A DNA stretch of 64,000 nt from a virus (lineage: Duplodnaviria > Caudoviricetes), in IMG/VR virus record IMGVR_UViG_3300048503_000021, positions 1 through 64,000 of that record. One strand, 5' to 3'. The position numbers and the translations under genes are program-made. Positions within the stretch are counted from its first letter, which is position 1; each line of letters starts with the position of its first letter. The notes under the pieces are model-generated. The model worked only from the letters and a program-made list of their open reading frames with translations. It was not told the origin of the DNA and did no database searches. Below, in pieces: positions 3,500 to 9,598 of the stretch.

Positions 3500-3856
3500 A
3501 TGAGCGAGTATCGAGAATTCAGGGATGCCGCAGACGTATTCGCGGCGTGCTGCCCTAAGGCAAAACACTTTGACGGAGATTGTGCAGCGGCGAATCGACT
3601 GTATCCAATCCTGGAGAAGATCAGGGAACGCGCCATAGCCACCGCTGACGATCCGCGTGACGCCACCATCGGCGAACTGCGGGCGCTGTGCGGGGAAGCG
3701 GCGGTGCAACTTGACGAGTACCTTGATTACGAGCGAGCGGAGCACATTTGCATCGTAATAGGCGACGTGGCCCTTGCTGCCAAGCTCCGCGCTGCCAGCG
3801 CAGCCCAGGCGCTTGAGGAGACGGCGCAGAGAATAAGGAAGGAGATCAAGGGATGA
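3500..3856 (+). CDS. Hypothetical protein (DPRDA family)
   Basis: DPRDATIGEL, KLRAAS, ETAQRIRKEIK. Confidence 0.6.
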   Translation: MSEYREFRDAADVFAACCPKAKHFDGDCAAANRLYPILEKIRERAIATADDPRDATIGELRALCGEAAVQLDEYLDYERAEHICIVIGDVALAAKLRAASAAQALEETAQRIRKEIKG

Positions 3857-4143
3857 GCAATACCAGCAAATCACAAGAGATGTCTGGGATGCCAGCCAAC
3901 ATGAAGTTTGTACCAGCGGGAAACATATTTGCGCCTAGCCCCGATCCGCGCGACGCAGAGATCGCCAAACTGCGGGAGGCGCTGACCAAGATCACGGCAG
4001 AGATCGTAAAATCTACCGACTTAGCCCTGCAAATGGTGGAGGCGAAAGCCTGGGCAACCTGCGCACTGAATCTCGCCCTGTCGATGAATAGGATTAACAG
4101 TATCGCAGTCCAGGCGCTCGCCGAGCCGGGAGGGAAGCCATGA
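3853..4143 (+). CDS. Hypothetical protein (DPRDA family)
   Basis: DPRDAEIAKLREAL; ATGA overlap. Confidence 0.6.
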   Translation: MSNTSKSQEMSGMPANMKFVPAGNIFAPSPDPRDAEIAKLREALTKITAEIVKSTDLALQMVEAKAWATCALNLALSMNRINSIAVQALAEPGGKP

Positions 4144-4301
4144 ACTCACTGCATATTGCCGCTTTTACTTGGGCGGTGGTGGCTCTAACAATGGCTATTT
4201 TCGTTAAGCCGATTCCGCCCTGGGTTTACTTCTGGTCTGCCGCTGCGATTATTGCCTACGTCGTCGCCGAAGTCGTTCGCTTGCTGAGAGAGAAGCCATG
4301 A
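4140..4301 (+). CDS. Small two-TM membrane protein (53 aa, not in ORF track)
   Basis: MNSLHIAAFTWAVVALTMAIFV..WVYFWSAAAIIAYVVAEVV; ATGA overlaps at both ends. Confidence 0.6.
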   Translation: MNSLHIAAFTWAVVALTMAIFVKPIPPWVYFWSAAAIIAYVVAEVVRLLREKP

Positions 4302-4588
4302 ACTTATTTGACCAAGGTCCGGATGGGAAGTTCATAAGCCGGAGTGAGGCGCTGAAAGCATGGTTGCCGAAGCTCTTAGATAGAGCCCTTGGCGATGAAA
4401 CCGCGCAAGCCCTGGATGTGCTGGCGGGGTATAAAGAGCGTCATGCGGCTAACGATCTGCGGGTAGCGGCCGACATGTTAGACAGACAAGATTCACACAG
4501 CGCGGACTACTGTATCAAGCGGCATACGCGCAAGCGCACCATCGCCGCCGAACTCCGCGCGACCAAGGAAAGGATCGGGAAGCTATGA
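4298..4588 (+). CDS. Hypothetical protein
   Basis: ATGA coupling. Confidence 0.6.
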   Translation: MNLFDQGPDGKFISRSEALKAWLPKLLDRALGDETAQALDVLAGYKERHAANDLRVAADMLDRQDSHSADYCIKRHTRKRTIAAELRATKERIGKL

Positions 4589-5004
4589 TTGAATCCCTGC
4601 TGATTGCCTACCTGCTGGCCCAGCCTCCAGCGACCGGGTGGCGCTTCTGTCCCGAGTCGGGCATATATCAGATAACCCCTTGCTATTCGGAAGTCCTAGC
4701 CCCTATCGTAATCGCTCAACAGCCCGACCTCGACGTCCTCCGCGCTAGGGTGGACGCGCTGGAGAAGCGGGTCAAGGAACTAGACCATAGCCTCACCTTG
4801 TGTGAATCTGCCGCTAGGCGAGAAAGTTTCGATAAGGGTTATCGGCCATTGGAGCCCTTGGATGTGAGTAGGTGTTGGAAGTTGGAAGTAGCGTGGGAAG
4901 CCTGCGACCGCGCCACGGCGCTCACGGTGCGGATCGTGCGCGACAACACCGCGCTGCTCACCGGCGGGCGGGCGATGGGGAAGAGCGAGCGGAGCCGGGC
5001 ATGA
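4585..5004 (+). CDS. Hypothetical protein with hydrophobic N-terminus and coiled coil
   Basis: MIESLLIAYLLAQ; LRARVDALEKRVKEL. Confidence 0.55.
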   Translation: MIESLLIAYLLAQPPATGWRFCPESGIYQITPCYSEVLAPIVIAQQPDLDVLRARVDALEKRVKELDHSLTLCESAARRESFDKGYRPLEPLDVSRCWKLEVAWEACDRATALTVRIVRDNTALLTGGRAMGKSERSRA

Positions 5005-5255
5005 CCGACGAAACATTCATCGCGACGATCAGCACAGCATTCCCGTCTGGGAAATATGGGGTAATATTGCCATTTTGGCGCAAGCCCGACGGCACGGTAG
5101 ACCGAGAGAGGACACTGGACAACCTAAAGTACTTCCCGTTAGCTAGCACGTTCACGCCGGAGCAACGAGCGAAGTTGCTTTCTGGGCCGCCAGAGCAACC
5201 GCCGAGCGACAAGCCGTCGAGTGAGGCGTGTAAGGAGCGCGGCAATGGGAAGTAA
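5001..5255 (+). CDS. Hypothetical protein (MTDE...ACKERG ends)
   Basis: ATGA overlap; termini shared with 6579-6803. Confidence 0.55.
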   Translation: MTDETFIATISTAFPSGKYGVILPFWRKPDGTVDRERTLDNLKYFPLASTFTPEQRAKLLSGPPEQPPSDKPSSEACKERGNGK

Positions 5256-6582
5256 CTCGAAGATTGAATGGACGAGGCACACATTTAACGCTTGGGTTGG
5301 CTGTTCCAAGGTAAGCGCGGGTTGTACCCGATGTTATGCCGAATCGCTGGCAAAGCGCACCGGATTGGCGATTTGGGGTGATTCCGGTACGCGGCATGTC
5401 ACCTCAGACGCCTATTGGCAGGAGCCATATAAATGGGCAACCGCTGCGAGCATGTTTGGCGAGAGGCATCGCGTATTCTGCAATTCGCTAGCGGATGTGT
5501 TCGAGGATCGACCGGACCTTTCCGCGCCCCGTCATCGACTCTGGCGATTGATTCTCGACACACGTCATTCGCTTGATTGGTTGCTGCTGACGAAGCGGCC
5601 CGAGAACTTCAACATGATACCGCTCTCATTGGCGGATTCAGTCTGGCTCGGCGTCTCCGTGGAGGACCAGGCGACAGCCGACGAGCGGATTCCGCTGCTG
5701 CTGAAGACACCGGCGGCGGTTCGGTTTGTGAGTTGCGAACCCTTGATTTCCCCTGTCGATGTGTCACAATATATCAGAGGTTACAAACCGTATGAAGGAA
5801 GCGGAGCGATCATTTTTAGCGCTGATGCAGATCGGTGTCTTTTCGATGGAGGCGGACGGCCAGATATGGAGACATCGCAGGCTAGTGGGGGGGAGCCACG
5901 TCGGAACACCTCCAGCGTGGAGGGACATCGCGAGAGTTCGGGCGGAAAAGTCAACGAGCAACGGATACCCCACGATCTTCTTCAACGACGGAGTGGACGG
6001 GAAGCGAAAGAAGGTGTGGGCGCACCGAATCGTTTGGATGATAGCGAACAGATCGGATATTGCGCCGGGCCTGGAAATCAACCACAAGGACGGCATACGG
6101 AAGAACACATCGCCCTCGAACCTGGAAACAGTAACCCACTCACAGAACATGATTCACGGTTGTCGGGTGCTGGGGAGGAAAGGGAAGTCCGCATCCGGCG
6201 AGACCAATCCGGCGGCCCGATTGCGGGTGAGCGATGTCTTACAAATCAGGGCGCTTGCGGGCAAGATACCGCAGTCGCAGATGGCTGCTATGTTCCACGT
6301 GAACCAGGGGACAATTTCAGCGGTCATAACGAAGAAGTCATGGGCGCATCTGGAATCTCGCTGATAATCGTCGGTTGCGAGAGCGGGCCGGGGGCGCGGC
6401 CGATGGATGAGAACTGGGTGCGCTCAATCCGCGATCAGTGCGTGGACACCGACGTGCCGTTCTTCTACAAGCAACGGCTGGAGAATGGCCACAAAGTATC
6501 GCTGCCCCTACTCGATGGTCAGCAGTGGGCACAGTTCCCGGAGGCGCCCGATGCCAAGGAGGGCGAGGAGGTAAGCGAATGA
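5245..6582 (+). CDS. DUF5131 / phage Gp37-Gp68 family protein with ~190-codon internal insertion
   Basis: SKIEWT..TFN.WVGCSKVSAGCTRCYA, LLLTKRPEN, VWLGVSVEDQ, RFVSCEPL, IIVGCESGPGARPM, VPFFYKQ. Confidence 0.9.
   Translation: MGSNSKIEWTRHTFNAWVGCSKVSAGCTRCYAESLAKRTGLAIWGDSGTRHVTSDAYWQEPYKWATAASMFGERHRVFCNSLADVFEDRPDLSAPRHRLWRLILDTRHSLDWLLLTKRPENFNMIPLSLADSVWLGVSVEDQATADERIPLLLKTPAAVRFVSCEPLISPVDVSQYIRGYKPYEGSGAIIFSADADRCLFDGGGRPDMETSQASGGEPRRNTSSVEGHRESSGGKVNEQRIPHDLLQRRSGREAKEGVGAPNRLDDSEQIGYCAGPGNQPQGRHTEEHIALEPGNSNPLTEHDSRLSGAGEEREVRIRRDQSGGPIAGERCLTNQGACGQDTAVADGCYVPREPGDNFSGHNEEVMGASGISLIIVGCESGPGARPMDENWVRSIRDQCVDTDVPFFYKQRLENGHKVSLPLLDGQQWAQFPEAPDAKEGEEVSE
5792..6364 (+). CDS. HNH homing endonuclease nested in an alternative frame inside DUF5131
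   Basis: AHRIVW...EINHKDGIRKN...NLETVTHSQN..H; C-terminal GETNPAARL...HTH-like..SWAH; GAGG upstream of ATG. Confidence 0.9.
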   Translation: MKEAERSFLALMQIGVFSMEADGQIWRHRRLVGGSHVGTPPAWRDIARVRAEKSTSNGYPTIFFNDGVDGKRKKVWAHRIVWMIANRSDIAPGLEINHKDGIRKNTSPSNLETVTHSQNMIHGCRVLGRKGKSASGETNPAARLRVSDVLQIRALAGKIPQSQMAAMFHVNQGTISAVITKKSWAHLESR

Positions 6583-8933: not shown

Positions 8934-9301
8934 ACATAGACGATCTGACCATCAAGCAGGCCCGCGAACTGGTTGCGATGTTCGCGACAAGCCCAACGAT
9001 CAACCCCAAACCAGTGCATCCGATGCTCGGCAAACGCTGCCTTGTGCGGACCTACAGCGCCGGAGTGCATATCGGCGATGTGGTGTACGTCGATGGCATG
9101 GAATGTAAGCTGGAGAATGCGCTTCGACTGTGGAAGTGGGAAGGTGGCGGCTTGTCGCTGTCGGCGGTCGCAAACAACGGGATTTCTGGCGGCAGGCTGA
9201 ACAAGACTGGCGAAGTCTACCTGACGAACGTAATTGAGTTCATCCCGACGACCAAGATGGCAGAGGCGACGTATGAGCGATTTATCGAAGATCGTCGCTA
9301 G
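8930..9301 (+). CDS. DUF6948-like phage protein
   Basis: MNIDDLTIKQAREL..GKRCLVRTYSAGVH.G...ALRLWKW...LSAVA. Confidence 0.7.
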   Translation: MNIDDLTIKQARELVAMFATSPTINPKPVHPMLGKRCLVRTYSAGVHIGDVVYVDGMECKLENALRLWKWEGGGLSLSAVANNGISGGRLNKTGEVYLTNVIEFIPTTKMAEATYERFIEDRR

Positions 9302-9521
9302 GCATCGCGGCGACGGCTCCGGCTACGGCGACGGCTACGGCGACGGCTACGGCGAAGGCTCCGGCTACGGCGACGGCTCCGGCTACGGCTACGGCGACGG
9401 CTCCGGCTACGGCTACGGCGAAGGCTCCGGCTACGGCTACGGCGACGGCTACGGCGACGGCGACGGCTCCGGCGAAGGCTCCGGCTCCGGCTCCGGCTAC
9501 GGCTACGGCGACGGCTCATGA
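9273..9521 (+). CDS. Gly-X repeat protein
   Basis: (GY/GD/GS/GE)n repeat following the DUF6948-like gene. Confidence 0.6.
   Translation: MSDLSKIVARHRGDGSGYGDGYGDGYGEGSGYGDGSGYGYGDGSGYGYGEGSGYGYGDGYGDGDGSGEGSGSGSGYGYGDGS
9308..9517 (+). repeat. Hexamer tandem array GGC-(TAC/GAC/TCC/GAA)
   Basis: About 35 GGCNNN units read directly. Confidence 0.95.
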
Positions 9522-9598
9522 CGCAGGCAATGCTCCAGTCTGACCAGGATGCCGTGCGCCGCGCCTGCGTGGGGGGGGAGGACGATGAACTACGCTGA
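9518..9598 (+). CDS. Linker minigene copy 3 (MTQAMLQSDQDAVRRACVGG...)
   Basis: ATGA overlap; mosaic of copies 1 and 2; contains a G8 tract. Confidence 0.45.
   Translation: MTQAMLQSDQDAVRRACVGGEDDELR

Follow-up and report, generated by a model that had tools for sequence, protein, structure and literature searches.

An HNH homing-endonuclease gene nested in the +1 frame of a phage DUF5131 gene whose own frame stays open

Anatomy of the DUF5131 locus and its nested gene

We analysed the first 64 kb (64,000 nt, hereafter the window) of the 96-kb IMG/VR virus record IMGVR_UViG_3300048503_000021, assigned to the Caudoviricetes, in which a DUF5131 gene (the host gene) carries a complete HNH homing-endonuclease gene inside its coding sequence, on the same strand and in another reading frame (Table 1). 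The host open reading frame (ORF), for which a GTG-extended form begins at 5221, scored 218 bits against Pfam PF07505, where the curated cut-off is 28.9. In a six-frame profile search this match fell into two stretches that lie in the same frame with zero stops between them. Since profile positions 1-172 and 173-243 bound positions 5764-6348, the size of the insertion is exactly 585 nt. The host ORF was also called as a gene by the Joint Genome Institute (JGI) on a near-identical contig, L009. This independent JGI contig is 99.94% identical to the window, with 2 single-nucleotide differences and no insertion or deletion, and the overlapping frames are therefore not an assembly artefact.

Table 1. 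Features of the DUF5131 locus, in window coordinates
Feature	Position	Strand	Description
Host gene DUF5131 (Gp37/Gp68; radical-SAM superfamily)	5245..6582	+	445 aa, uninterrupted; Pfam PF07505 E 1.7e-64 in two stretches; phrog_2045 E 3.5e-71
DUF5131 N-terminal part, profile positions 1-172	5254..5763	+	157.7 bits (six-frame profile match); ends EPLISPVDV; AlphaFold2 pLDDT ~90-98
Donor-type flank, likely co-conversion tract	5669..5763	+	unalignable to empty alleles L013/L012 from 5669; encodes QATADERIPLLL...RFVS
Insertion, stop-free in host frame	5764..6348	+	585 nt = 195 codons; gap between the two profile stretches (172/173)
Shine-Dalgarno-like AGAGG	5776..5780	+	11 nt before HNH ATG; written in host codons Arg-Gly
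Nested HNH homing-endonuclease gene, I-HmuI-like	5792..6364	+	190 aa; +1 frame relative to host; Pfam HNH_3 E 2.5e-11; phrog_59 "HNH endonuclease" E 1e-29
HNH_3 catalytic motif of nested gene	6014..6151	+	six-frame profile match E 5.5e-13; sole HNH_3 in the 96-kb record
DUF5131 C-terminal part, profile positions 173-243	6349..6540	+	58.5 bits (six-frame profile match); begins (S)GISLIIVGCESG; pLDDT ~88-96

The host protein retains all 40 of the 40 columns that are invariant in a 74-sequence DUF5131 alignment, including the Cys triad C20, C27 and C30 and, after the insertion, the ESG motif (E379-S380-G381). AlphaFold2 modelling with this alignment gave a predicted local distance difference test (pLDDT) score of ~90-98 for residues 11-180 and 371-430, whereas residues 184-367 scored below 50 and showed no secondary structure. 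The disordered stretch was modelled between strand 159-164 and strand 373-377, so that in this prediction the insertion forms a disordered loop between two barrel strands. The modelled core aligned, across both halves, with spore photoproduct lyase 4fhc (Z 12.6, root-mean-square deviation 3.4, 205 residues aligned) and with viperin 5vsl (Z 11.5). These radical-SAM (S-adenosylmethionine) structural matches fit the published listing of DUF5131 within the radical-SAM superfamily (PMC9477430). A search of the PDB with the DUF5131 profile gave no match, nor did one with the single HNH sequence.

An earlier first-pass annotation, made from the letters of the window, had described the host-frame reading of the insertion as unlike a domain. 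Indeed, the translation contained no Pfam family, and among 5.8 billion proteins it matched only the protein of L009, a near-identical copy of the window's, indicating that the host-frame insertion holds no conserved domain. The peptide is G/E/R/S-rich and consists to 74% of polar residues, Gly and Pro (71-84% over the nested alleles described below).

The same annotation had recognised the intact HNH ORF with its own ribosome-binding motif and ATG, and profile searches confirmed its identity and its +1 offset (Table 1). An ATG-extended form would start at 5759, and the TGA stop (6362-6364) lies across the Leu-Ile codons with which the host encodes part of the conserved strand ISLIIVG. A promoter scan found no + strand promoter near the HNH gene. 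In a tblastn search of 50,697 phage records, almost the whole nested gene aligned with annotated phage HNH genes of the free-standing kind; a DNA search of these records found no close relative of the window. A profile of the nested HNH family matched I-HmuI (PDB 1u3e) with E 9e-21 over positions 13-181 of 182. Residues N97, H98 and N110 are invariant in a 13-sequence alignment, and weak helix-turn-helix matches fall at the C-terminal end, at profile positions 130-180. An AlphaFold2 prediction from the single HNH sequence, in which no alignment was used, had a pLDDT of 31.6 and is uninformative. With both the catalytic motif and full-length similarity present, the nested nuclease is, by sequence, a member of the I-HmuI-like HNH homing endonucleases.

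Related alleles and selection on the two frames

Searching with the DUF5131 N-terminal domain retrieved empty alleles, which lack the insertion, together with one 459/465-aa relative that has an insertion at the window's site. Four more nested alleles came from scanning viral contigs in six frames, once with the DUF5131 domain and once with an HNH alignment; a viral-contig search with the single HNH sequence had returned distant matches only. The empty alleles (P0003/L010, L012/L013 and L093) share 89-92% protein identity with the window. Two comparisons proposed in the first-pass annotation were made: the DUF5131 profile placed the insert edges at 5764/6348 and the homologue search produced the empty alleles, and searching for nested HNH ORFs in DUF5131 genes produced five further diverged alleles, with 0 stop-making codon junctions in all six.

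Among the nested alleles, L092 (the metagenome DNA of the 459/465-aa relative) encodes a 211-aa HNH protein at +1 that is ~30% identical to that of the window, and its host frame is open over a 648-nt insertion. In L036 (3575-4075), the host frame is likewise open over a 504-nt insertion, and the HNH gene is intact except for one in-frame TGA (PIPD*ITVNH); this nuclease was probably inactivated recently. L104 (1978-3657) also has an HNH gene, of the same nuclease clade, nested at +1 and an open host frame. Its insertion occupies another DUF5131 loop, at profile position ~124/125, between the LxxKR strand and VWLG, and its HNH protein is 47-48% identical to the L092 and L036 nucleases. This placement suggests site switching within one host family. 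Overall, the HNH proteins of the nested alleles are 28-50% identical to each other, with 83% for L101/L103. Two other loci that a script had flagged were rejected as nested alleles: L084 has a GC-rich chance open frame without a Pfam family, and L088 is a free-standing gene whose 0 stops in 133 codons were taken as chance at a GC content of 0.69.

Other arrangements were seen in the DUF5131 family. At L020 (2863-4560), a stop directly behind GGES ends the N part of DUF5131, and an ATG (MKARPCDLAW...) opens the C part; between them, the opposite strand carries a gene for a 244-aa LAGLIDADG endonuclease (3566-4300). This is a classical gene-in-pieces layout, and an Rfam intron was not found there. 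At L065 (3001-4670), the same loop holds a 375-nt in-frame, Trp-rich insertion that is protein-like and has no nested ORF, and a free-standing HNH_3-type gene lies immediately downstream (4218-4670). L093 carries an isolated second copy, 141 nt long (1448-1588), of the DUF5131 3' end, which is 97% identical to window 6425-6565 and lies out of context ~1 kb downstream of the intact empty allele.

We determined whether the open host frame of the insertion could be due to chance. At the +1 offset, a host stop arises only where an HNH codon ending in T is followed by a codon starting with AA, AG or GA. The window HNH gene has 20 codons of the first kind and 46 of the second, and the two never adjoin. 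As the first-pass annotation had stated, the host frame is stop-free through the insert: there were 0 stops in 195 codons, against 4.8 expected (Poisson P 0.008; codon-order permutation 0.0025; synonymous-codon shuffling, which keeps the HNH protein sequence constant, 0.006). The stop rate at this offset over the long ORFs of the record was 0.038 per codon junction. The rough estimate given earlier, of less than ~1% by chance, therefore holds for the window sequence (P 0.002-0.008).

This pattern recurred in the relatives. All six distinct nested alleles (window, L092, L036, L101/L102, L103 and L104) have the +1 offset and 0 host-frame stops versus 3.7-8.6 expected, with synonymous-shuffle P values from 0.017 down to <5e-5. 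The third frame of these alleles contains 7-23 stops. By our reasoning, these are explained by stops that form in that frame when A or G comes after a Met or a Leu/Val codon, and the conserved ATGAA start would itself read TGA there. As a control, 55 distinct free-standing homologues from the same scan had a median of 11 stops per 100 codons at the +1 offset, and GC-matched free-standing homologues had 4-11 stops in 120-166 codons. L101 and L103 have only 44-46% GC and are nevertheless stop-free, with 8.6 stops expected; composition therefore does not explain the open frame. The six-frame DNA scans that found the further alleles were blind to host-frame openness. Moreover, the HNH proteins of the different lineages are so diverged that silent sites are saturated, which makes the alleles close to independent trials. 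By these counts, the open host frame is not a product of chance, and selection keeps it open. By our own reasoning, +1 is the workable offset, as every potential host stop can be removed there by a silent T-to-C change in the nuclease gene.

We further compared L101 with L103, which showed what each frame is selected for. Within the insertion, nucleotide differences at HNH codon positions 1, 2 and 3 numbered 28, 17 and 81, and amino-acid identity was 83% in the HNH frame versus 50% in the host frame, the third frame being the same as the host frame. Thus, the nuclease is under ordinary purifying selection, whereas the host reading is only kept open. For the DUF5131 part downstream of the insertion, the ratio of nonsynonymous to synonymous substitution rates (dN/dS) was 0.26 for the window versus L092 and 0.20-0.24 versus the empty alleles; over both sides of the insertion it ranged from 0.11 to 0.26. 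In the downstream host domain, L101 and L103 differed at 9, 4 and 28 sites by host codon position. This 50-codon count was used in place of a whole C-tail dN/dS of 0.79, which was discarded because the divergent tail aligned poorly. From the conserved residues that are kept and the constraint downstream of the insertion, we conclude that the DUF5131 copy is not a pseudogene and that the 3' part of the host gene is evidently translated.

Mobility, proposed mechanism and alternative explanations

The sequence upstream of the insertion bears on how the nested gene arrived. The window and the empty alleles L013/L012 share 99.8% identity over 5218-5668, and this match breaks off 95 nt before the insertion. 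The peptide encoded by the 5669-5763 flank (QATADERIPLLL...RFVS) matches that of the nested allele L092 and not those of the empty alleles. A breakpoint followed by an L092-like flank is the expected trace of co-conversion during homing, and with moderate confidence we read it as such. The window nuclease is intact, that of L036 has a single nonsense codon and other alleles are empty, a range of states that would fit the usual cycle of invasion and decay.

The neighbourhood also contains short repeats of 33-39 nt with 79-94% identity at gene boundaries (window 5220-5256/6768-6804, 3059-3097/3818-3856 and 7659-7691/8869-8901). They contain the Shine-Dalgarno (SD) sequence, the stop and the next start, and the encoded ORF ends recur (...ACKERGNGK, ...ACKERGDGR). 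These repeats look like boundary elements that could promote the module shuffling observed between the window phage and L012/L013/L092.

The comparisons demonstrate the anatomy of the locus, selection that keeps the host frame open, purifying selection acting both on the nuclease frame and on the host domain beyond the insertion, presence/absence polymorphism and a mosaic flank; we infer read-through translation, a working host enzyme, internal initiation, and the activity and target of the nuclease. Probably, the HNH gene persists in the DUF5131 loop by unspliced dual coding, through read-through of the open host frame. An I-HmuI-like HNH gene would have invaded a length-variable surface loop of a phage DUF5131 gene as an element whose length is a multiple of three and whose frame is +1, and synonymous T-to-C changes, which cost the nuclease nothing, would have cleared the stop-making junctions. 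Ribosomes would then read the host gene straight through to give a 445-aa enzyme, with the two barrel halves joined by a disordered loop of ~190 residues. The nuclease would be made separately from the same mRNA, probably at a low level, by internal initiation at ATG 5792 behind the SD-like AGAGG. It presumably cuts or nicks the insert-free DUF5131 alleles of co-infecting relatives, and repair would copy the element together with flanking host sequence. We also lean, with less assurance, towards a more general proposal: that an entire I-HmuI-like lineage has specialised for a splicing-free life, always at +1 in DUF5131 loops, with its wobble positions tuned to keep the host frame free of stops and with movement between two loops of the enzyme (172/173, and ~124/125 in L104), and that the enzyme works with ~190 residues of filler.

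Several points weigh against dual coding as set out here. The SD-like signals before the HNH start are inconsistent: L101, L103 and L104 have stronger AGGAGG or GGAG motifs than the window at the equivalent place, L036 has a weak one and L092 has none that is obvious, so that the route by which the nuclease is translated is uncertain. The six nested alleles share ancestry, and their P values are not fully independent. It is a prediction that a loop of 190 residues can be accommodated between two strands of a radical-SAM barrel. Mosaicism is general in this neighbourhood, so the breakpoint at 5668 may have an origin other than homing. Finally, splicing by an unrecognised ribozyme may be compatible with the sequence.

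This last point leads to the alternative that survives best, which is nonetheless unlikely: a cryptic self-splicing intron, with a group I-like or other ribozyme core overlapping the HNH ORF and the open host frame being incidental. I-HmuI, the closest solved relative of the nuclease, is itself encoded in a group I intron, and Rfam models can miss introns that are divergent or interrupted by an ORF. An Rfam scan of the window up to E 10 returned only chance-level hits to HgcC and flavi_FSE (E 2.5 and 5.7) and nothing relevant; there was no match in the five other nested loci (up to E 1) and none in six related loci. The free room for an RNA core is only ~28 nt before and ~0 nt after the HNH ORF, in agreement with the first-pass annotation, which had seen no space for a group I intron core. 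Furthermore, a spliced insertion needs no open frame, yet six of six diverged alleles are open where each is expected to have 3.7-8.6 stops, and the pattern of substitutions in the insertion is that of HNH codons, without a sign of additional RNA constraint.

Still less probable is a gene in pieces, in which an N fragment and a C fragment starting at the in-frame ATG 6340, behind GAAGAAG, would assemble in the manner of Aeh1 NrdA split by mobE. This ATG stands 3 codons before the profile resumes, and L020 demonstrates that a true split arrangement occurs in the DUF5131 family. However, none of the six HNH-bearing alleles has a stop that would end an N fragment, so that some read-through product is unavoidable. 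Neither L092 nor L036 has an internal Met near the junction, so this residue is not conserved, and such an arrangement would not select for 160-210 stop-free codons.

We give hardly any credence to the possibility that the host copy is dispensable or decaying, or that ribosomes bypass the insertion, with the open frame due to chance or composition. GC3-rich genes do lose stops at +1, as the GC-rich (0.69) free-standing L088 illustrates with none in 133 codons; nevertheless, L101 and L103 are stop-free at 44-46% GC, where 8.6 stops are expected. Decay is contradicted by the retention of all conserved host residues and by a dN/dS of 0.11-0.26 on both sides of the insertion. Known bypassing, as in T4 gene 60, spans ~50 nt and involves a stop after the take-off codon. 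Here the host frame contains no stop, after a take-off codon or elsewhere, and ribosomes would have to skip 585 nt, ten times the span known. An intein was rejected because nuclease and host are read in different frames and because the host-frame peptide lacks a Pfam family, shows no conservation between alleles (50% identity) and is predicted to be disordered.

Taken together, these comparisons bear out one half of the splicing-free strategy advanced in the first-pass annotation. Six open alleles, the empty alleles, selection downstream of the insertion and the lack of an intron or intein signal speak for dual coding, whereas ribosomal bypassing, its other half, is unsupported because it needs no open frame and because no stop follows a take-off codon. 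Among the findings that the annotation had named in advance as speaking against its reading were nested alleles with stops in the host frame, an Rfam intron match and a pseudogene host. These three were looked for and none was found.

Elsewhere in the window, a coding region contains a tandem array of 12- and 18-nt units of the GGCTACGGC type (9266-9552; 15 overlapping copies), which probably encodes a Gly/Tyr-rich repeat protein.

Relation to known systems

This layout is not unprecedented, as it was published in 2025 for phage DNA methylases (PMC11855218). In that account, the ShiLan domain of mycobacteriophage DNA methylases is an insertion that is stop-free in the host frame and in which an HNH gene lies out of frame (Arsenault, Gosselin & Gogarten 2025, PMC11855218; earlier PMC9957025). 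Neither an intron nor an intein signature was found there, and the mechanism given is inferred by computation only (PMC11855218). It includes a second methylase case, the Pacc40 gp60 insertion, and according to its abstract a survey turned up comparable out-of-frame insertions elsewhere in phages and in prokaryotes (PMC11855218).

The window element resembles ShiLan, as described there, in several respects. In both, some close homologues have the insertion and others lack it, no stop interrupts the host frame, and there is no intron or intein signature. The HNH ORF is read in a different frame, from a few codons inside the insertion to its far end, and what the host frame encodes there is predicted to form a loop separate from the enzyme. 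There are also differences. The host here is a DUF5131 radical-SAM-like gene, whereas the ShiLan host is a methylase; the nuclease is I-HmuI-like with a C-terminal helix-turn-helix, in contrast to the flanking zinc fingers of ShiLan; and the gene starts with ATG behind an SD-like motif, whereas ShiLan is described with GTG and no ribosome-binding site. In addition, the window DNA comes from an uncultured environmental phage. Mycobacterium was not in the organism tallies listed for the tblastn search of the 50,697 phage records with the HNH protein. The window element is assigned to the ShiLan type by layout and not by descent. Relative to ShiLan, the DUF5131 case adds another host family and another nuclease subfamily, a quantitative signal of selection from six diverged alleles, an additional site of insertion and an explanation of the +1 offset.

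Other systems share part of this anatomy. I-HmuI of Bacillus phage SPO1, an HNH nicking homing endonuclease, resembles the nested nuclease in its HNH_3 motif and in size (174 versus 190 aa), but it is housed by a self-splicing group I intron within the DNA polymerase gene, whereas the window has no intron room or signal. Free-standing homing endonucleases are known to split phage genes, as in Aeh1 nrdA/mobE and T4 gene 39/60 with mobA. In those cases, too, a homing-endonuclease gene lies inside a conserved phage gene without an intron or intein; they give two polypeptides, through a stop and a restart, whereas here the host frame runs through. The lambda genes Rz and Rz1 offer a different parallel, with Rz1 embedded in Rz in the +1 frame, that is, a complete gene nested in a longer translated gene. 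Rz and Rz1 are cooperating genes that arose in place, whereas the nested HNH gene is a selfish invader and what the host frame encodes over that stretch is filler.

Homing-endonuclease genes are taught to spare their hosts by residing in introns, inteins or intergenic sites. An overprinted element that is transparent to translation is a further route, which has so far rested on one computational paper. The DUF5131 clade firms up the dual-coding idea with six diverged alleles, selection on an otherwise meaningless frame and one allele with a premature nuclease stop, and its empty alleles could serve as cleavage substrates. Because gene callers never report such nested nucleases, neither protein databases nor tallies of mobile elements include them, and the inflated host proteins can pass mistakenly for new domain architectures.

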